Source of the DNA: Tateyamaria sp. | GTDB taxonomy: Bacteria > Pseudomonadota > Alphaproteobacteria > Rhodobacterales > Rhodobacteraceae | Assembly (NCBI GenBank): GCA_029250205.1 | Contig: JAQWVA010000120.1 | Coordinates: forward strand, 16,610 to 80,609 | Reading direction: 5' to 3' | DNA: 64,000 bases | Shown here: in pieces, positions 870 through 53,288 of the stretch | Layout of the letters: each line of letters opens with the position of its first letter | Position numbering within the stretch: position 1 is the first letter of the stretch | Notes under the pieces: model-generated | The model's input: only the letters and a program-made list of their open reading frames with translations | Told to the model about the DNA's origin: nothing | Databases searched by the model: none | Translations under genes and position numbers: made by a program

Positions 870-2012
870 ATGACATTGAAACAAATGATGGCTGCTGGTT
901 GTATAGCGGCCTTGGGCACGGCGGCGATGGCCGATGGCCACGGCGGCAAGGTTAAGGTCGGGATGATCACGACTCTTTCAGGCGGTGGTGCTGGCTTAGG
1001 CATTGATGTCCGCGACGGTTTTATGCTGGCTGCCAAAGGCAACGAGGCGCTGGAACTGGTGATCGAGGATGACCAGCGCAAACCAGATATTGCCGTGCAG
1101 CTTGCCGATAAACTGATCCAGTCTGAAAAGGTGGATGTGATGACTGGGATTATCTGGTCGAACTTGGCTATGGCTGTGGTTCCTGCGGCGACCGCTCAGG
1201 GCAAGTTTTACCTATCGCCCAATGCGGGGCCCTCAGCATTGGCGGGGCGTGGATGCCACAAGAACTATTTTAACGTCAGCTGGCAGAACGACGCGTTTTC
1301 TGAAGCCGCTGGTGCGTATTTGAGTGCTCAGGGCGTCGGAAAAGTATTTTTGATGGCGCCAAATTATCCTGCAGGTCAGGACATGATGAAAGGCTTTAAG
1401 CGGTTCTTCAGTGGCGAAGTGACAGACGAGGTCTATACCAAACTAGGCCAAACAGACTACGCTGCTGAAATTGCGCAAATCCGCGCCAGCGATGCCGATC
1501 AGGTCTATTTCTTCCTGCCGGGTGGCATGGGTATTTCGTTCATGAAGCAATTTGCTGGGTCGGGCGTTGATAAGCCCGTAGCCGGGCCTGCGTTCAGTTT
1601 TGATCAGGGTATCCTTGGCGCAATCGGTGAAGCAGCGCTGGGCGTGAAAAACACTGCACATTGGTCCAAGGATCTGGACGTGCCAGGCAATGCTGAATTT
1701 GTTGCAAATTTCGAAGCCGAATATGGTCGTTTGCCATCGCTTTACGCGGCGCAGGGCTATGACACCGCATTGTTGCTGATGTCCGCGATGGATAAGGCAA
1801 ATGTTAGTGATGCAGATGCATTCCGGGCCGCGCTTAAGGATGCTGATTTCCAGTCTGTACGCGGCAAGTTTGCTTTTGCCGACAATCACCATCCGATTCA
1901 GGATATCTATATGCGTGAAGTCGTGAAAGAGGGAGATGTCGTGACCAACAAATTGGTCGGTGTGGCAGCGACGGATCACACAGACGTTTATGGTGCCGAC
2001 TGCAAGATGTAA
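870..2012 (+). CDS. ABC transporter substrate-binding protein, LIV/type I fold (aromatic-acid/benzoate-like subgroup)
   Basis: Signal peptide, KVGMITTLSG, EDDQRKPD and YAAQGYD patterns; RBS GGGAGAG upstream. Confidence 0.85.
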   Translation: MTLKQMMAAGCIAALGTAAMADGHGGKVKVGMITTLSGGGAGLGIDVRDGFMLAAKGNEALELVIEDDQRKPDIAVQLADKLIQSEKVDVMTGIIWSNLAMAVVPAATAQGKFYLSPNAGPSALAGRGCHKNYFNVSWQNDAFSEAAGAYLSAQGVGKVFLMAPNYPAGQDMMKGFKRFFSGEVTDEVYTKLGQTDYAAEIAQIRASDADQVYFFLPGGMGISFMKQFAGSGVDKPVAGPAFSFDQGILGAIGEAALGVKNTAHWSKDLDVPGNAEFVANFEAEYGRLPSLYAAQGYDTALLLMSAMDKANVSDADAFRAALKDADFQSVRGKFAFADNHHPIQDIYMREVVKEGDVVTNKLVGVAATDHTDVYGADCKM

Positions 2013-17885: not shown

Positions 17886-19223
17886 TTATGCGCCGGGGTT
17901 GCAAGAACCCAATTCGCCGCCAAAGATGGCTGCGTCGTATGTCACCTGCGATACAGGTGTGACTTCGACGATCTCGAGAAGGTCAAATTCCGACGTTGGG
18001 TTTTCTTTACCCTTCACGACCAGCACGTCCTTGAAACACTGGTGGTCTTCGGCGCGGTAAAGCGTTGGGCCATTGCCCATGCCATCGAACTCAAAGCCTT
18101 CGAGAGCTTCGGCAACTGCGCAGGGGTTGAACGATCCCGCACGTTCGACAGCATCTGCATAGAGCATAACCTGCACATAGCAGGTGTGCGCTGCCTGTGA
18201 CGGCGGGAAGCCGTACTTGGTGCCAAAGGACTGGACAAACTGCTTGGAGCCGGCGTCGGTCAGCGACCAGTGCCAGTTTGTCGACCCAAAGATGCCTTTA
18301 ACGTTGGCGCCAGCGCCTTTTGCCATCAGACGCGAGTAGAGCGGAACAACGATTTCGAAGTTCTTGTCGTTCACCAACTTGTCACGCAGGCCAAACTGAA
18401 CCGCGTTGGTCAACGAGTTCACCATGTTGCCGCCGTAGTGGTTCAGAACGAGAACGTCTGCACCCGATTGCAGAACTGGAGCAATGTACGACGAAAAATC
18501 GGTCTGTGTCAGCGGCGTTTTCACTGCGGCAACAGTTTCCCAACCCATGGCTTCGGTCGATGTGCGAACGGCTTCTTCTGTGGTGTATCCCCAGTTGTAG
18601 TCGGCGGTCAGGTGGTACGCTTTGCGGTCCGTGCCGTAGTTGTTGGCCAACACTGGCGCGAGCGCTGCACCGGTCATGTAGGAGTTAAAGAAGTGGCGGA
18701 AACCATTTGCCTTCTTGTCTTTGCCGGTGGTGTCGTTTGAGTGTGTCAGACCTGCCATAAAGATAATGCCAGCTTCTTGGCACAGCGCTTGCACGGCCAC
18801 GGCCACGCCCGAGCTAGACCCACCCGTGATCATCACGGCACCGTCTTTTTCGATCATGGACCGCGCCGAAGCACGTGCCGCGTCAGATTTGGTCTGAGTG
18901 TCGCCTGTGACGTACTCAACTTTTTTGCCGAGAATGCCATTGCCTTGCAGAGCTTTAGACGAGAATGTGTTCATCAGGCCGCCGTCGCCGCCACCGTTCA
19001 GGTGTTCGACCGCAAGCTCGTAAGCGCGCAGTTCATCCGCGCCTTCGTCGGCATAGGCGCCGGACTGTGGAACGTTAAACCCAAGTGTGACCGTGCTTCC
19101 CGCAGGCGCGTTGGTATAGCCTTCGTGACTGCCTGCAGACAGGTATGTCGGCAGCGCGAGGCCCGCGCCAGCGACAGCACCGGTTTGCAATACGCCACGA
19201 CGCGACAGGTTCATTTTGGACAT
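17886..19223 (-). CDS. Tat-exported ABC substrate-binding protein (type I fold)
   Basis: Twin-arginine LSRRGVLQ; GFNVPQSGAY; first gene of the ABC operon. Confidence 0.88.
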   Translation of the reverse strand: MSKMNLSRRGVLQTGAVAGAGLALPTYLSAGSHEGYTNAPAGSTVTLGFNVPQSGAYADEGADELRAYELAVEHLNGGGDGGLMNTFSSKALQGNGILGKKVEYVTGDTQTKSDAARASARSMIEKDGAVMITGGSSSGVAVAVQALCQEAGIIFMAGLTHSNDTTGKDKKANGFRHFFNSYMTGAALAPVLANNYGTDRKAYHLTADYNWGYTTEEAVRTSTEAMGWETVAAVKTPLTQTDFSSYIAPVLQSGADVLVLNHYGGNMVNSLTNAVQFGLRDKLVNDKNFEIVVPLYSRLMAKGAGANVKGIFGSTNWHWSLTDAGSKQFVQSFGTKYGFPPSQAAHTCYVQVMLYADAVERAGSFNPCAVAEALEGFEFDGMGNGPTLYRAEDHQCFKDVLVVKGKENPTSEFDLLEIVEVTPVSQVTYDAAIFGGELGSCNPGA

Positions 19224-46213: not shown

Positions 46214-48553
46214 TTAGTCGCCGGGTTTGCTAGCGGCTGGGGTTTCTTCCACCATCTCTTGTGCGGCTTGCGTGGCGGCAGCGGCAATGGCGGTTTTGTC
46301 AGCCTGTGTCAGTTCATTGTGATCGTCCATGCCTGGGATTGCGACGCGCACTTCGCGGCGGGCAAATTCCAGACCATTTTCTTCGAACGACTTATTGATA
46401 CGGTTGTAGATTTCCTTGCGCAACGTGAACTGAGTGCCCGGCTTGGCCATAAACTTGCCGCGGATCACGATCCCAACGTCGTCGAATTCAAAAACGCCCT
46501 GGCTCTTGAAGGGTTGCAGGAAATCATCCTTGTACATCTCTTCCTGAATCATCTGGTTGCCGATGTTCTTGAATATCTTTTTGACCTTGTTGGGATCAGT
46601 GCCAAAGGGGACGGTAAAGCGCAGTTTCATGATCACCCAGTCGCGGCTGTAATTGGTGATTTTGGGAATCTCACCGTAGGGAAGGGTGTGAACCGGCCCC
46701 TTGTGGTGACGCAACTGCATCGAACGAATGGAAATTTTTTCGACTGTGCCCATCGTGCCTTCGACCTCGACATATTCGCCTGTGCGAAAGGCATCATCAA
46801 TAAGAAAGAAAATACCCGATACAACGTCTGTTACAAGTTTTTGAGCACCAAAACCAATGGCTAGACCTACGATCCCGGCACCGGCCAACAGCGGCGTGGT
46901 ATCGATGCCTACGTTGCCAAGCGCCAACAACAAGAACACCACTACGATCGCAGCCCGCGCAACCCCAAGGATCAATGGCAGAACAGTCGAAAGCCTTGAC
47001 CCGCCCGCGCCGCCGCCATCGCCGCCGCCCATGCTTTCGTCTTCGGGGTCGTAGCCCGATGCGGTTTGTTCAGCGGCCAATTTACGGTTGATCCAGAGCG
47101 AGACGCTCTCGTAGGCCAGATAACCGACAGCTAGGATGATCGTGCCCTCGATCAGGTTTCCAGCCAGTTTCGTTCCAACGCCCGCAGCGGCCATATTGCT
47201 GAGGTCAATGTTCCAGATGCGGGCAACCGAAAGCACAACAAAGCCAAATACGATCACTCGCCCAATGCGGATATAGCTACGGCGTGTCGACACATAGGCG
47301 CGTTCGGCCACGGCGCCTTCGCCCGTCATGGGCGGCGTGAGGTGACGCACGAGGCCTCGAACGGTCATGTCGAGCGCGGGCGCAAAAGCCATGATGGTCA
47401 GTGTCCAAATGTGAGGCAGGTGCACCAGAAGTTCAGACTGTCCATAGCTGCTAAGCATCGTTGCCAACCACCAGGTTACAACCGAAGCAGCAATCACAAA
47501 ATAGGGGAAGATGCGCGCTGCGCGTTCTTCACCTGGTGTAATGTCAGGATCGGCCCCGCGCATCATCATCGTGAGGCCGGGGCGCAAGCTCCAGAACACC
47601 CAAATGGTATAAAGATGCAAGCTTAGGTTTAACCAAAAGTCCGCCCGAGAGGTGGCAACGGCTTCGCCATTCATCGCGAAAAATTGCGGAATAAAATAAG
47701 TAAGCCCCAAAAGTAAAGCAAATGAACCATTGTGAAGGTACATGGTATGGGCAGTTGCATTGTCGGTGTGCACAATACGGAATTCGGGCCGCTGCGGTGC
47801 AAGAAGGAACCGAGCAACGGCAAGTGTAACGCGCGGCACAACGATCAAATTTATCCAGATGGATTCGATGTAGGCAGGCATGGCCGTGGCCTGTTGCTCC
47901 ATCATTCCAAAGTACACACCCATTACTGGGCCAATCGCTCTGCCGATCATATTGGCCGCGAGAAAGAAAATGACCACAGCGATGATATCAGCTGTCAACC
48001 TTTTGGCCAGAAAACTCAATGTTTCCATGAGAGTGGGCGTATCGCTGACCGTGATGTTCTGCACCCAATTGCGCACCATACGGCGAAAAGCAAATTCGAC
48101 CAAAATTGCTGAAAAAATGGCGATGGCCATAATAGCGATCATCAAGATCAGCCCATCGGTGCCAAGTTGGGCCATGAATGAGTTGAAAGCGTTGGCAAAC
48201 GAGGCGCCAAGATCCGGAAGCTTTTCAAAAGCGTCGGCAACGGATAGCGCCACCCCCACGGTTCCTGCATTAAGCAATTCGGCAATGCCGCCGCTTTGCT
48301 GTGGCGTCGTGACCGCCTGAGTGTTGAGCTGGCTGAGTAAAAGGGCACGCACTTCGTTATCGCTGAGCCTTGATATTAATGCGTTAGCAGCGTCCACGGT
48401 CAGTGGTTCGGGCAGGATTGGCACGATCTGCGTGGCAGTTGATGAGGTGCTTGGCATCAGTGATTGGGCATGAGCTGGAGCGTCCAGACCCAAACAAATG
48501 GTCAGGGCCAATATTGCGCAACAAACGCGTAAAATTTGTGCATGCCTGATCAT
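46214..48553 (-). CDS. Large MscS-family mechanosensitive channel
   Basis: Signal peptide, many TM segments, GLAIGFGAQKLVTD, GEYVEV..GTVEKISIRS, PYGEIPKITNYSRDW. Confidence 0.9.
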   Translation of the reverse strand: MIRHAQILRVCCAILALTICLGLDAPAHAQSLMPSTSSTATQIVPILPEPLTVDAANALISRLSDNEVRALLLSQLNTQAVTTPQQSGGIAELLNAGTVGVALSVADAFEKLPDLGASFANAFNSFMAQLGTDGLILMIAIMAIAIFSAILVEFAFRRMVRNWVQNITVSDTPTLMETLSFLAKRLTADIIAVVIFFLAANMIGRAIGPVMGVYFGMMEQQATAMPAYIESIWINLIVVPRVTLAVARFLLAPQRPEFRIVHTDNATAHTMYLHNGSFALLLGLTYFIPQFFAMNGEAVATSRADFWLNLSLHLYTIWVFWSLRPGLTMMMRGADPDITPGEERAARIFPYFVIAASVVTWWLATMLSSYGQSELLVHLPHIWTLTIMAFAPALDMTVRGLVRHLTPPMTGEGAVAERAYVSTRRSYIRIGRVIVFGFVVLSVARIWNIDLSNMAAAGVGTKLAGNLIEGTIILAVGYLAYESVSLWINRKLAAEQTASGYDPEDESMGGGDGGGAGGSRLSTVLPLILGVARAAIVVVFLLLALGNVGIDTTPLLAGAGIVGLAIGFGAQKLVTDVVSGIFFLIDDAFRTGEYVEVEGTMGTVEKISIRSMQLRHHKGPVHTLPYGEIPKITNYSRDWVIMKLRFTVPFGTDPNKVKKIFKNIGNQMIQEEMYKDDFLQPFKSQGVFEFDDVGIVIRGKFMAKPGTQFTLRKEIYNRINKSFEENGLEFARREVRVAIPGMDDHNELTQADKTAIAAAATQAAQEMVEETPAASKPGD

Positions 48554-48645
48554 GGCTTTTTTCTCCTACCCAAAACTAGTCTTTAATCATGAGTGATTTT
48601 AATTGTGAGCTGCAAGCGAAACTAACACAGCGCAACATATATTTT

Positions 48646-48674
48646 AAAAAAAAGGCCGAGCACTGAGCTCGGCC
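48646..48674 (-). terminator. Intrinsic terminator
   Basis: The minus strand reads GGCCGAGC-TCAGT-GCTCGGCC followed by T8. Confidence 0.9.
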
Positions 48675-48726
48675 AAGTCCAACAGGGAGGTTCGAAGAGA
48701 CGGCGTGATACGCTGCGTGCCTTCAT
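48646..48726 (-). ncRNA. Candidate trans-acting sRNA with an anti-SD seed
   Basis: -35 TTGTTT (48760-48755), 17-bp spacer, -10 TATTTT (48737-48732); CCUCCCUG seed; intrinsic terminator at the 3' end. Confidence 0.6.
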
Positions 48727-48799
48727 GCAACAAAATATGCGTGCACTTGCGTGCAAACAAGGCAGAATGTGAAAATTTGCTAGTATGGCCGTTATGCGC

Positions 48800-49717
48800 T
48801 CAGCGCATGGCTTGGTTTTTTCCTTTTTCTCTGAGTATCTTACGATAGGCAATAATCTCATCCTGAACGAAATCCCGAAAGGCTGCTATCCGCTTGGATT
48901 GGCGCAGTTCCTCTGGGTATGCGAGAAAAACAGGCACATCCGCAGATTCAACTTCTGGCAGGACATGAACAATGCGTGGTTCGTCTTGGCTGACATAATC
49001 GGGAAGTATGCCAACCCCCAGATTTTGTAGTACGCCCTGCAGCACACCGAAATAATTATTCACAGTCAGTAATGATTTGACATCATAGGTTAGTAAGTGC
49101 TGCACAAGGTTTGATCCGGCGCCGACCTGCGCCGAATTTGCATTCTGACAGATCAGTCTGTGGTGAGCGAGGTCGTCAAGCCGTTCCGGAACACCGTTTT
49201 CATCCAGATACGGTTGTGTCGCGAAAAGCTGCATCTTGACTGTCATCAGCCGTTTGCGGATCAGATCCGCTTGGCTTGGTTCCTTCATACGGATCGCAAC
49301 ATCTGCTTCGCGCATCGGCAGATCTAGTACGCGTTCCTCGAGCATAAGATCCACGTGCAGATCGGGATAACTTTGGTAAAGCTTGGCCAGACGCGGGGCC
49401 AGCCAGAGTGTGCCAAAACCAATTGTGGTGGTCACCCGCAGGTCGCCGAACACCTCTTCTTCGCTGTCGCGAATACGGGCGGATGCCGCGTCGAGCCGCT
49501 TGTTCATGGCAATGGTTGCATCAAATAGCAATTCGCCCTGTTCTGTCAGGATGAGCCCGCGCGCATGGCGGTGAAAAAGTGTCGCGTTGAGTGAGTCCTC
49601 AAGCCCTCTGATCTGACGGGAGACTGCCGATTGGCTCAGGTTAAGCTTGTCACCTGCATGCGTAAGGCTCCCTGCGTCAGCCACGGCGTGAAATATTCTT
49701 AATTTGTCCCAGTCCAT
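48800..49717 (-). CDS. LysR-type regulator (VtlR/LsrB-like N-terminus; IorR-like context)
   Basis: MDWDKLRIFHAVA...LSQSAVSRQI; divergent from ior. Confidence 0.92.
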   Translation of the reverse strand: MDWDKLRIFHAVADAGSLTHAGDKLNLSQSAVSRQIRGLEDSLNATLFHRHARGLILTEQGELLFDATIAMNKRLDAASARIRDSEEEVFGDLRVTTTIGFGTLWLAPRLAKLYQSYPDLHVDLMLEERVLDLPMREADVAIRMKEPSQADLIRKRLMTVKMQLFATQPYLDENGVPERLDDLAHHRLICQNANSAQVGAGSNLVQHLLTYDVKSLLTVNNYFGVLQGVLQNLGVGILPDYVSQDEPRIVHVLPEVESADVPVFLAYPEELRQSKRIAAFRDFVQDEIIAYRKILREKGKNQAMR

Positions 49718-49800: not shown

Positions 49801-49837
49801 ATACAAATTTTTGTATGCAGGTCAGTAATTGTGACCT
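49801..49837. promoter_or_regulatory. Two palindromes in the lysR/ior divergent promoter; candidate LysR site
   Basis: ATACAAA-tt-TTTGTAT (49801-49816) and AGGTCA-N7-TGACCT (49819-49837), which contains T-N11-A. Confidence 0.5.
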
Positions 49838-49883
49838 ACATTTGATTATAAATGATGCAGGACTGATCCTGGCAGGGAGGCCA

Positions 49884-52800
49884 ATGATGAGCACGCAAAA
49901 GATTTCACTGAACGACCGCTATGACCTCGACAAAAGCCCAGTGTTGTTAAACGGCACACAGGCGTTGGTCAGATTGATGCTGATGCAAAAGGCGCGTGAT
50001 GTCGTGGCGGGACTTAATACAGCTGGCTATGTGACAGGCTACCGTGGGTCGCCGTTGGGAGCGGTCGATATGCAGATGACACGGGCCCTGAAACAGCTGG
50101 CTGCGTCGGATGTGACATTTCAAACGGGCCTGAACGAAGATCTTGCAGCGACTGCGCTTTGGGGCAGCCAGCAAGCAGAACTGCGCGGCGAGGGGAAATA
50201 TGATGGTGTTTTTGGCCTGTGGTACGGCAAGGGGCCCGGGGTGGACAGGTCAGGCGATGTGATGCGCCACGCCAACATGGCGGGGTCGTCGCGCAATGGC
50301 GGCGTTTTGATGGCGATGGGGGACGATCACACCGGTGAATCGTCGACCGTGTTGCACCAATCCGAGTTTGCGATGGTCGACGCTTACATGCCCGTAGTAT
50401 CGCCTGCAGGTGTGCAGGAAATCCTCGATTATGGGCTTTACGGCATAGCGCTTAGTCGTTTTGCCGGGGTTTGGGTCGGCTTAAAGACAATGAAGGATAC
50501 GGTAGAAGCGACATCGGTCGTGGATGGTGACCCACATCGTTTGAACTTTGTGGCGCCAGACTTTCAAATGCCCGATGGCGGGCTAAACATACGGCTGGTG
50601 GATGACCGGATCGAGCAAGAGGCGCGATTGGTCGATTACAAACGCTATGCCGCCGAAGCTTTTGCTAATGCCAACAAGATGGACAAACGCGTTTGGGGCA
50701 AACCGGGGGCTAAAATAGGCTTTGTGGCGGCGGGCAAAAACTGGCTCGATTTGGTGCACGCGCTTTCACTGCTCAACATTGATGCATCCGAGGCCGAGCG
50801 GCTTGGGGTGACCACCTACAAGGTCGGCCAGACGTGGCCACTGGACACCAAAACATTCAACCAGTGGGCCGAGGGCCTTGATGTGATTGTCGTGATTGAG
50901 GAAAAGCGCAAACTGATCGAAGTGCAGATCAAGGAAGCCATCTTTGACAATCGTGCGGGTCGCCGCGTCTATGGTGGCATGAAAGAGGGCGACGTATTTT
51001 TCAGCGCCAAATGGGCGCTCGACCCTGTCGAAATCGCCTCCAAGCTGGGTCAGGTTCTGATTGATGAGGGCCGCAACACAGATGGTATTCAAGCCGGCAT
51101 GGCGACGCTGGACGAAGCGCGCCGCGCGGATAATGCCGAAGAGATCGCGGCCCGGTTGCCTTACTTTTGCTCAGGCTGTCCACATAATTCATCGACCAAG
51201 GTGCCCGAAGGCAGCCGGGCCTATGCGGGTATTGGCTGTCATTTCATGGCGATCTGGATGGACCGTGAAACGTCTGGTTTTACCCACATGGGGGCTGAAG
51301 GCGCCAATTGGATCGGCGAGGCACCTTTTTCAAACCGACCCCACGTGTTCCAGAATATCGGAGATGGGACGTATAACCATTCAGGCGTACAGGCCATTCG
51401 CGCTGCTTTGGCTGCTGGCACGACGATAACCTACAAAATCCTGTATAATGATGCAGTAGCGATGACGGGTGGGCAGGGCAATGATGGCGATCTTGATCCC
51501 TACCGAATCGTGAACGAGGTCCGTGCAATGGGCTGCAAGAATGTCGCTGTTGTGTACGATGACAAAGAAGACGTAGATGTCGGACGATTTCCATCGGGCG
51601 TAGACGTTCAGGAACGGGTCAATCTGCCGCTGGTTCAAGAGCGCTTTGCGCAGACCGAGGGTGTCAGCATTATTGTTTATGTTCAGACCTGTGCCGCTGA
51701 AAAACGCCGCCGCCGCAAGCGGGGCACGTTCCCAGATATCGACAAGCGTGTCTTTATCAACACCGATGTCTGTGAAGGGTGCGGGGATTGTGGGGTGCAA
51801 TCGAACTGTGTTTCGATCGTGCCCAAGGACACCGAACTTGGCCGAAAACGCGCGATTGACCAGTCTTCGTGCAACAAGGATTTTTCTTGTGTCAAAGGGT
51901 TCTGCCCTTCGTTTGTGACCCTCGAAGGGGCGCAGGTCAAAAAACAGGTGACTGCTGATTTAAACCTTCCTGACCTGCCGATGCCAGAGTTGCCCACGAT
52001 CAAGGGTACTTGGAACGTGGTAGTGACCGGTGTTGGTGGCACTGGCGTTGTCACGATTGGGGCCTTGATGGCGCAGGCGGCCTATATCGATGGCAAGGGG
52101 GCGGGTGTGATGGAAATGGCGGGGCTGGCGCAAAAGGGCGGCGCTGTCCATATCCATTGCCGTCTGGCCAATGACCCGCATGACATTAGCGCCATTCGCG
52201 TGGCCACAGGAGAGGCCGATGCGTTGATCGGCGGTGATCTGGTTGTCAGTGCTGGTGCCAAGACACTTGGTCTGACCAGTGCAGGTCGCACCGGGGCAGT
52301 TGTGAACAGTCATGAAATTATCACAGGGGATTTCACTCGTAATACCGAATTTGCTTTGCCCTCTGATCGCCTCACGCTCGCGCTTGAGGCGCGGATGCGC
52401 GATCGGGTGGATCTGTTTGATGCGTCAGAACTGGCGCGGGTGACCATGGGCGATTCAATCTTTTCCAATATGATGATCTTTGGAGCCGCGTGGCAGCGCG
52501 GATTGTTGCCGTTAAGCCTTGATGCGATCCGACAGGCGATTGATCTGAACGGCACAGTTGTGGATAAAAACCTGCGTGCCTTTGATATTGGTCGATGGGC
52601 TGTTCTCAACCCTCATGATGCGCGCAACCTGGCAGCGCCAAAAGTGCTCGAACTTCCCAAAACGCTGGAGCAGAAGATCGCTTTCCGGGTAGAACACCTG
52701 ACGGCTTACCAGTCAAAGCGTTTGGCCAGACGCTATCGCAAGCTCGTCGACAGATTTGACGATGATCGCGTCAAAAAGGCCGTTGCCTCAGGATACCACA

Positions 52801-53288
52801 AACTGCTGGGCTACAAAGACGAATATGAAGTGGCACGGTTGCACCTTCAAACAGAAGCCAAGGCGCGCGAGGCATTTGATGGAGATTTTACTGTGAAATT
52901 CCATTTGGCCCCGCCGCTTTTGTCCAAGGATGGCCCAGACGGCCGTCCAATAAAAAAGGAATACGGCCCAGCGATGATGCGGAACTTTCGTATTCTCGCC
53001 CGACTTAAGCATCTGCGCGGGACCCCTTTTGACCCTTTTGGGCGCACAACCGAGCGACGCATGGAGCGTGCACTTATCAAGCAATATGAGGCAGACATGA
53101 ATGTGGTTTTGTCCCATCTGAACACCAACACACGCGAAGCGATCGTTGCTCTGGCCGAACTTCCGCTTCAAATTAGGGGCTTTGGTCCTATCAAACACGC
53201 GAACGAGGCTAAAGCTGCCAAACGTCGCGAAGAACTTTTGGGTGTGATCCGACAAGGTGGGCCTGATCTGTCCAAAGTCGCTGAATGA
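49884..53288 (+). CDS. Indolepyruvate/phenylpyruvate:ferredoxin oxidoreductase, fused alpha-beta
   Basis: GYRGSPLG, NEDLAAT, FCSGCPHN, TPP motif GDGTYNHSG, ferredoxin CEGCGDC...C, GVGGTGVVT; RBS GGGAGG. Confidence 0.93.
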   Translation: MMSTQKISLNDRYDLDKSPVLLNGTQALVRLMLMQKARDVVAGLNTAGYVTGYRGSPLGAVDMQMTRALKQLAASDVTFQTGLNEDLAATALWGSQQAELRGEGKYDGVFGLWYGKGPGVDRSGDVMRHANMAGSSRNGGVLMAMGDDHTGESSTVLHQSEFAMVDAYMPVVSPAGVQEILDYGLYGIALSRFAGVWVGLKTMKDTVEATSVVDGDPHRLNFVAPDFQMPDGGLNIRLVDDRIEQEARLVDYKRYAAEAFANANKMDKRVWGKPGAKIGFVAAGKNWLDLVHALSLLNIDASEAERLGVTTYKVGQTWPLDTKTFNQWAEGLDVIVVIEEKRKLIEVQIKEAIFDNRAGRRVYGGMKEGDVFFSAKWALDPVEIASKLGQVLIDEGRNTDGIQAGMATLDEARRADNAEEIAARLPYFCSGCPHNSSTKVPEGSRAYAGIGCHFMAIWMDRETSGFTHMGAEGANWIGEAPFSNRPHVFQNIGDGTYNHSGVQAIRAALAAGTTITYKILYNDAVAMTGGQGNDGDLDPYRIVNEVRAMGCKNVAVVYDDKEDVDVGRFPSGVDVQERVNLPLVQERFAQTEGVSIIVYVQTCAAEKRRRRKRGTFPDIDKRVFINTDVCEGCGDCGVQSNCVSIVPKDTELGRKRAIDQSSCNKDFSCVKGFCPSFVTLEGAQVKKQVTADLNLPDLPMPELPTIKGTWNVVVTGVGGTGVVTIGALMAQAAYIDGKGAGVMEMAGLAQKGGAVHIHCRLANDPHDISAIRVATGEADALIGGDLVVSAGAKTLGLTSAGRTGAVVNSHEIITGDFTRNTEFALPSDRLTLALEARMRDRVDLFDASELARVTMGDSIFSNMMIFGAAWQRGLLPLSLDAIRQAIDLNGTVVDKNLRAFDIGRWAVLNPHDARNLAAPKVLELPKTLEQKIAFRVEHLTAYQSKRLARRYRKLVDRFDDDRVKKAVASGYHKLLGYKDEYEVARLHLQTEAKAREAFDGDFTVKFHLAPPLLSKDGPDGRPIKKEYGPAMMRNFRILARLKHLRGTPFDPFGRTTERRMERALIKQYEADMNVVLSHLNTNTREAIVALAELPLQIRGFGPIKHANEAKAAKRREELLGVIRQGGPDLSKVAE

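Follow-up and report, generated by a model that had tools for sequence, protein, structure and literature searches.

The closest described relatives of the RNA analysed here are the small RNAs SorY and SorX of Rhodobacter sphaeroides. SorY binds Hfq and represses takP, which encodes the binding protein of a TRAP transporter (PMC4615379). [quoted passage not shown] Positions 39, 49 and 52 of SorY have been mutated (PMC4615379). [quoted passage not shown] In Agrobacterium and Sinorhizobium the genes abcR1 and abcR2 are located directly downstream of vtlR/lsrB (PMC7486931). AbcR1 is LsrB-dependent and its promoter contains an LsrB box; AbcR2 is expressed from an RpoH1 promoter (PMC8844928). The two RNAs carry C/U-rich anti-Shine-Dalgarno (anti-SD) motifs, of which one is located in the single-stranded linker that follows the first hairpin, and repress transporter binding-protein mRNAs, including livK (PMC8844928). 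The published LsrB/VtlR box reads GCAT-N3-TG-N3-T (PMC8844928). The structure 9HH1 is LsrB of Agrobacterium tumefaciens, and the trxB-lsrB operon is regarded as a hallmark of this regulator (PMC11975290).

The window analysed here is the whole 64-kb stretch of Tateyamaria DNA. On its minus strand, the stop codon of a lysR gene is followed by CTTGTT (48761-48756), 16 nt, CATATTT (48739-48733), 8 nt and the 5′ hairpin of an sRNA, the start of which lies about 75 nt past the stop codon. The features of the locus and of its candidate targets are the following:

48646-48726, minus strand: sRNA gene, probable SorY orthologue, approximately 79-81 nt, consisting of a 5′ hairpin, a single-stranded seed and a terminator (from the Rfam SorX and SorY alignments and the predicted fold).
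48646-48674, minus strand: Rho-independent terminator, GGCCGAGC, the 5-nt loop UCAGU and GCUCGGCC at 48674-48654, then U8 at 48653-48646.
48677-48690, minus strand: anti-Shine-Dalgarno seed CCUCCCUGUUGGAC, preceded by GAA and followed by UU.
48694-48724, minus strand: predicted 5′ stem-loop, GAAGG...CUUC, with a sequence that varies among species and a structure that is retained.
48733-48761, minus strand: RpoH-type promoter, as judged by sequence, CTTGTT-N16-CATATTT, with a probable start near 48724-48726.
48785-48810, minus strand: LysR-type (T-N11-A) box CCATGCGCTGAGCGCATAACGGCCAT, which includes the lysR stop codon and precedes the sRNA promoter.
48800-49717, minus strand: gene of an LsrB/VtlR-like LysR-family regulator of 305 aa (Pfam HTH_1 and LysR_substrate).
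46214-48553, minus strand: MscS-family channel gene, flanking the sRNA on the side opposite lysR.
49887-53288, plus strand: fused indolepyruvate ferredoxin oxidoreductase-family gene (ior; NCBIfam NF009589), divergent from lysR.
49869-49880, plus strand: site at the ior ribosome-binding site with which the sRNA has been proposed to pair, CTGGCAGGGAGG / CUGGCAGGGAGG, with the GGGAGG core at 49875-49880.
49819-49837, no strand assigned: near-perfect palindrome AGGTCA-N7-TGACCT of the T-N11-A type in the ior promoter region.
17886-19223, minus strand, and 870-2012, plus strand: two binding-protein genes, both Peripla_BP_6 (LivK-type), the class of the Sinorhizobium meliloti AbcR target livK.

In an initial annotation of this DNA an undescribed sRNA of about 80 nt had been proposed, transcribed from a promoter of its own and carrying an anti-SD seed as well as a terminator. 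All of these sequence features are present. The 81-nt RNA has a predicted fold of -29.6 kcal/mol (z = -3.0). The terminator was confirmed as an 8-bp hairpin followed by U8 (48674-48646, minus strand), and seven pairs of its stem (48674-48654) are G-C. The string CCTCCCTGTTGG is found at 48690-48679 on the minus strand and nowhere else in the 64-kb window as an exact copy; the seed likewise occurs there just once. A small protein encoded by the RNA was considered and rejected: the AUG with which the RNA starts is replaced in relatives by UUG, UCG or GUG, and their hairpins contain indels. The promoter spacer (48740-48757) contains the direct repeat TGCACGCA-AG-TGCACGCA, for which a 5-bp hairpin is possible; the repeat belongs to the window only and is absent from relatives.

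The view of the RNA as undescribed did not hold, as Rfam assigns it to the group formed by SorX and SorY. When the 64-kb window was scanned with Rfam, there was a single match, SorX (RF02784), at 48648-48705 on the minus strand with 53.3 bits (E = 3.9e-10), above the SorX gathering cut-off of 46.6 bits. In a sensitive scan the SorY model (RF02651) aligned end to end (positions 1-83) over 48646-48726 with 41.9 bits, below the SorY gathering cut-off of 111 bits. This cut-off defines a very narrow set, since even the Cereibacter azotoformans copy barely reaches it with 111.4 bits. The SorX and SorY models have a module in common, ACCUCCCUGUUGGAC plus terminator, and 15 of the 18 model positions that form the SorX 5′ hairpin have no counterpart in the alignment of the window element. 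Because the 3′ half, seed and terminator, is common to SorX and SorY, the SorX label is regarded as a cross-match.

One genome per species was scanned for the seed followed by a GGCC...GGCCTTTT terminator, a pattern that makes the seed invariant by design. At least 120 loci were obtained, essentially all from Rhodobacterales among the matches listed, and two types of copies are evident among them. The OmpR-linked, SorX-type copies have the conserved hairpin ttccccttgtcgtgtcggggttatgacacggca and a GGCCGGGC terminator and lie about 13 nt or less behind the gene of an OmpR-type response regulator (Response_reg and Trans_reg_C); they score 63-87 bits on the SorX model. The LysR-linked, SorY-type copies consist of a variable hairpin, AUA, the seed and a GGCCGAGC terminator, and those of roseobacters score 47-57 bits on the SorX model or do not match it. 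Seventy of the 123 copies listed, the one in the window included, lie 92-310 nt downstream of an orthologue of the window LysR (62-87% identity) on the same strand, and in most of the LysR-linked loci listed lysR is divergent from the same large ior gene. The gene upstream of the window sRNA is LysR-type, in contrast to the OmpR-type gene of true SorX. SorY of C. azotoformans is also located behind an orthologous LysR gene divergent from ior. In our own numbering of the Rfam SorY consensus, the window seed (48690-48677) is identical to SorY positions 39-52, and the mutated positions 39, 49 and 52 are the first C, the first G of GG and the final C of CCUCCCUGUUGGAC. Since the LysR/ior locus, the architecture and the C. 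azotoformans SorY copy agree, the window element is considered a syntenic SorY orthologue. We conclude that it is very probably the Tateyamaria orthologue of SorY, a trans-acting Hfq-type sRNA of about 80 nt with an RpoH-type promoter and an LsrB/VtlR-like LysR gene upstream. The sRNA is already known in kind: SorY has been characterised, and the window copy extends it to uncultured marine Tateyamaria.

Three further observations concern the distribution of the copies. One genome of Roseivivax halotolerans contains a SorX-type copy and a LysR-linked SorY-type copy, which indicates that the two types are coexisting paralogues (loci L009 and L017). Tandem SorX-type pairs 115-170 nt apart occur in two Rhodobacteraceae/Paracoccaceae MAGs (L003, 3776-3937; L032, 6934-7145) and recall the tandem abcR1-abcR2. 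A contig binned as Limisphaerales (Verrucomicrobiota; L020) carries a typical Rhodobacterales ior-lysR-sRNA locus with 70-80% protein identity, probably through a binning error.

The LysR protein of the window is 100% identical to a Tateyamaria sp. protein. Its designation as VtlR/LsrB-like in the initial annotation was borne out: among all PDB sequences the best match is 9HH1 with 237 bits, followed by the next regulator with 97 bits. The window protein shares 40% identity with LsrB over 290 residues, and the region of the DNA-binding helix is nearly identical. A search of 1.84 billion cluster representatives (50% clusters) gave 563 relatives at E <= 1e-30. Beyond the clade to which the protein itself belongs (58% and 54% identity), the full-length clusters most closely related to it are those nearest to LsrB (49-62% identity to LsrB), and the nearest clusters outside Rhodobacterales are LsrB-type and come from Hyphomicrobiales. 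In all three loci inspected, these Hyphomicrobiales-type relatives lie directly behind a thioredoxin-reductase-like gene, and the linkage to trxB is found solely among them; in the window and most related loci lysR is divergent from ior and is not part of a trxB operon. The residues C144 and C273 of LsrB are V and A in the window protein, and neither cysteine is present in any of the 117 Rhodobacterales-type sequences checked, which have V or I at position 144 and A at position 273. The window regulator is therefore unlikely to be a thiol redox switch. On the basis of these comparisons, the protein is LsrB-like and probably represents the sister lineage. Two other LsrB-like proteins were encountered in different surroundings, both with no detectable sRNA downstream: one of 54% identity adjoins BolA and glutaredoxin genes (L204, P0271), and one of approximately 40% identity adjoins a pseudouridine synthase gene (L207, P0310).

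Upstream of the sRNA promoter, the motif ATGY-N7-RCAT occurs in 46 of 56 relatives, nearly always 47-48 nt upstream of the TTG of the -35 element, compared with 30 of 4840 control windows. Alignment on the -35 element gives ag.cATGC-N7-GCAT..c.GG.ATG..GC...t.CGGC, which ends about 10 nt before CTTGA. The box of the window contains GCATAACGGCCAT, that is, GCAT-N3-GG-N3-T, inside the conserved ATGC-N7-GCAT and is one base off the LsrB/VtlR box. As the half-sites are constant while the spacer varies, the box is taken to be a protein-binding palindrome rather than an RNA hairpin. The terminator-like hairpin GTTATGCGCTCAGCGCATGGC on the plus strand (48785-48811) was rejected as a terminator, since it is this same conserved ATGC-N7-GCAT box. 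The position of the box suggests that the LsrB-like regulator may also modulate the sRNA promoter. The regulatory arm from LysR to the sRNA, as originally proposed, is plausible because a conserved LysR-type (LTTR) box precedes the promoter.

The initial annotation had gone further and suggested that ior could be controlled by both components. The ior product scores 1444 bits on NF009589 (cut-off 816), and its start codon was set by alignment with 47 orthologues. With ior as a specific and conserved target, the arrangement would be a feed-forward loop in which both genes are driven by the LsrB-like regulator and the ribosome-binding site of ior is blocked by the sRNA. The 12-bp duplex between the sRNA and the CTGGCAGGGAGG site in the SD region of ior (49869-49880) can form as described. 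Of the 76 initiation regions in the window, that of ior has the best predicted pairing with the sRNA (-22 kcal/mol), followed by that of the binding-protein gene starting at 19223 (-18 kcal/mol). GGGAGG is present in the ribosome-binding site of 74% of the 47 ior orthologues and in 5% of SD-bearing background sites, and no hexamer exceeds 47% in eight other gene families of the same loci. In addition, most loci listed keep lysR, the sRNA and ior together, and the LTTR box lies before the sRNA promoter. Against a specific role for ior, the pattern YYRRYRGGGRGG has one match in the window besides the antisense strand of the sRNA gene itself, while shuffles give 0.84 matches on average, so that the 12-bp match alone is not above chance. 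The six upstream positions of the duplex (CUGGCA) are not conserved among ior orthologues; the GGGAGG core alone is. Among GGGAGG-bearing sites ior pairs no better than the background (-17.2 versus -18.35 kcal/mol). A more distant relative (L203) keeps lysR and the sRNA but has no ior alongside. In R. sphaeroides, the genes that respond to SorY overexpression do not include ior (Table 1 of PMC4615379), although that list would miss a purely translational effect on ior.

The promoter of ior also argues against joint control by the same operator. In almost all relatives (L002-L120) the ior promoter carries the palindrome AGGTCA-N7-TGACCT, flanked by TTG and CCTAWWAT, in the region upstream of ior, and GTCA, GACC and ACCT are the most enriched tetramers in these regions. 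A common operator at ior and the sRNA was rejected, as GCAT boxes are not enriched in the lysR-ior spacer. The palindrome is unlike the box that precedes the sRNA promoter, so ior may be under the control of another regulator or of a further one. Taken together, a feed-forward loop with ior as the specific target appears unlikely. As a separate observation, the 47 ior orthologues tend to retain the ribosome-binding site at 49875-49881 in the form GGGAGG(C), and GGAGGC occurs in 61% of a 23-sequence ior family; the trailing C of GGGAGGC pairs with neither the sRNA nor the usual 16S anti-SD. Both 6-bp matches that had been noted at the SD sequences of the two Peripla_BP_6 genes were confirmed: GGGAGG precedes the start codon at 19223, and AGGGAG precedes that at 870.

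The promoter of the sRNA had originally been described as sigma70-like. A sigma-70 promoter was rejected: it is absent from the sites listed by a consensus scan, and 7 of 12 positions match by our own count. In S. meliloti the RpoH1 consensus is CTTGAA-N16-CCTATAT (PMC8844928), and RpoH-type promoters of R. sphaeroides have TTG at -36 to -34 and C/T-A-T-N-T around -14 to -9 (PMC3441632). The family of LysR-linked sRNAs has the promoter consensus cTTGA-N16-ccTAa.T, from which the window promoter deviates once in each element (-35 and -10). The TTG of the -35 element lies at 48760-48758, within TTGTTT, and TATTTT at 48737-48732. The pattern TTG-N18/19-[CAT][CAT]TAnnT is found at a fixed distance from the hairpin in 59 of the 70 LysR-linked loci listed, a spacing of 19 being rare. 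The promoter therefore fits the RpoH type and not sigma-70. By analogy with such promoters the start is expected at 48724-48726, in agreement with the earlier placement of +1 near 48726.

It was also considered whether the RNA is mainly a product of SorX type, generated from lysR read-through by RNase cleavage of the 3′ UTR, in which case the promoter-like motif would be irrelevant. The Rfam match above the cut-off is SorX, and a terminator scan found no convincing minus-strand terminator between the lysR stop and the sRNA; for this reason part of the RNA could come from read-through and processing, as SorX does. The region of the window is present, as assembled contigs, in marine metagenomes and some metatranscriptomes, and some metatranscriptome contigs span lysR to the sRNA or extend past the terminator, which may reflect read-through or DNA carry-over. 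Several contigs match just the 46-nt core (48646-48691) and continue into unrelated sequence; given these unrelated flanks, they are regarded as paralogous or orthologous copies elsewhere. The metatranscriptome and Cereibacter RNA-seq contigs carry no information on the 5′ or 3′ ends of the RNA, and they break off at the repeated 46-nt core. An origin mainly by cleavage is at odds with the promoter motif, which is kept at a fixed distance in 59 of the 70 relatives, and with the own transcription start of R. sphaeroides SorY (PMC6238624). Moreover, genuine SorX lies within about 13 nt of an OmpR-type gene and has a different 5′ hairpin that is conserved in sequence. Cleavage from the lysR transcript is thus quite improbable as the main origin of the RNA, and a SorY orthologue with a promoter of its own remains the preferred reading.

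Conservation of the element was assessed in an independent sample of 80 metagenome loci, picked solely by homology of the LysR protein (75-100% identity). Because the pattern of the genome scan had fixed the seed, seed conservation is claimed solely from this LysR-anchored set. The exact 14-nt seed is present within 450 nt downstream of the LysR gene in 72 of the 77 distinct loci with enough downstream sequence; three loci have one mismatch and two lack the seed. Two loci with a close LysR orthologue (L123, 91% identity; L156, 78%) have no seed within 450 nt downstream, where loss or relocation of the sRNA is possible. The 38 nt before the seed show 34% identity between species and yet a median z of -3.6 among 67 distinct relatives. 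An alignment of the 5′ hairpin with MAFFT and RNAalifold was too poor to call covariation, and an alignment-free folding test was used for this reason: the 38-nt pieces fold much better than shuffles in 93% of the 67 distinct sequences. The hairpin piece of the window itself is weaker than that of most relatives (z = -1.0). In the terminator stem, compensatory AU to GC changes are found across 69 sequences. A mere terminator or 3′ UTR of lysR, with no regulatory role and a seed that resembles an anti-SD by chance, is hardly credible: although hairpin and U-tract would terminate lysR in any case, the exact 14-nt seed persists in 72 of 77 loci while the adjoining 5′ hairpin falls to 34% identity, and promoter and LTTR box are conserved too.

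Direct support is available for the family membership of the RNA, its synteny, the conservation of promoter, box and seed, and the relationship of the regulator to LsrB. As to whether the RNA is expressed in this organism, whether RpoH and the LysR protein control it and which mRNAs it targets, ior included, we infer the following mechanism from sequence and from the SorY-takP pair of R. sphaeroides. The sRNA would be transcribed from the RpoH-type promoter, a type responding to heat and oxidative stress, 75 nt behind the LysR stop. The LsrB/VtlR-like regulator may modulate this promoter via the upstream LysR-type box. By analogy with SorY and takP, the exposed seed CCUCCCUGUUGGAC would base-pair with the ribosome-binding site of selected mRNAs in which that site is of the GGGAGG type, usually mRNAs for transporter binding proteins. 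By the same analogy, the pairing would lower translation and stability of the target mRNAs during stress.

The initial annotation had described the RNA as an analogue of AbcR. Its position behind an lsrB/vtlR-like gene does parallel that of abcR1 and abcR2 (PMC7486931), but the alpha-r15 model gave no match at E <= 1 in 48400-49000. [quoted passage not shown] Three loci from more distant branches bear on this relationship. In L203, where the LysR protein has 58% identity and ior is missing, the box, promoter and hairpin are kept together with AUACCUCCCUGUUGAC and the terminator (SorX, 37.9 bits). In L206, a trxB-lsrB-like locus, GCCUCCCUGAUUGAC and a terminator lie downstream (SorX, 35.1 bits, E = 4e-5), preceded by a hairpin with the loop CUCCCA. 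A second trxB-lsrB-like locus, L205, has ATGC-N7-GCAT-N7-ATGC and then an RNA-like element with CCCUCCCUUCG. These loci suggest continuity of a module of LsrB-like regulator and sRNA. Tentatively, we consider it possible, if not quite probable, that an LsrB-like LysR gene with an RpoH-driven, LTTR-boxed anti-SD sRNA is an old alphaproteobacterial module, of which SorY and AbcR would be the diverged descendants. The original analogy to AbcR/VtlR proved to be more than guesswork and offers an evolutionary and regulatory connection that can be put to the test.

If this is true, LsrB-type regulators are not confined to Rhizobiales, and the regulator co-controls SorY; the published claim that LsrB is unique to Rhizobiales would then need revision. 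[quoted passage not shown] In the literature searched, no paper treats both SorY and AbcR1, and none ties SorY to a LysR gene. Four points go beyond that literature: SorY is locked to an LsrB/VtlR-like regulator across Rhodobacterales; a conserved LysR-type operator lies before the RpoH promoter of SorY; this layout mirrors lsrB-abcR of rhizobia; and the ior ribosome-binding site is unusually conserved as an exact complement of the seed core.

The locus can be compared with four known systems. LsrB/VtlR (9HH1) is the best solved relative of the window LysR, and the nearest outgroup of the latter is the trxB-linked LsrB type; the window protein differs in lacking the redox cysteines, and its gene is divergent from ior instead of being located downstream of trxB. 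With AbcR1/AbcR2 (alpha-r15) the window sRNA shares the position directly downstream of an lsrB/vtlR-like gene, and SorY resembles AbcR in its RpoH-type promoter, LTTR box and C/U-rich anti-SD motif in the linker. Unlike the AbcR system, the window has one anti-SD motif per RNA rather than two, a single gene rather than a tandem pair, and a regulator outside a trxB operon. SorX (RSs2461; RF02784) has the same module of seed plus terminator, which is why the window element passes the SorX cut-off; it is distinguished by its UCCCCU...GGGGU hairpin, its GGCCGGGC terminator and its 3′-UTR origin, whereas the window element has neither this hairpin nor GGCCGGGC. From SorY (RSs1543; RF02651; Cereibacter/Rhodobacter sphaeroides) the window RNA differs in the unrelated sequence of its 5′ hairpin, which results in 41.9 bits against the cut-off of 111, and in its host, a marine roseobacter MAG of non-phototrophic type. 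Both RNAs nevertheless agree in length class, 5′ hairpin, seed CCUCCCUGUUGGAC, GGCCGAGC terminator, RpoH-type promoter and position behind an LsrB-like LysR gene divergent from ior.
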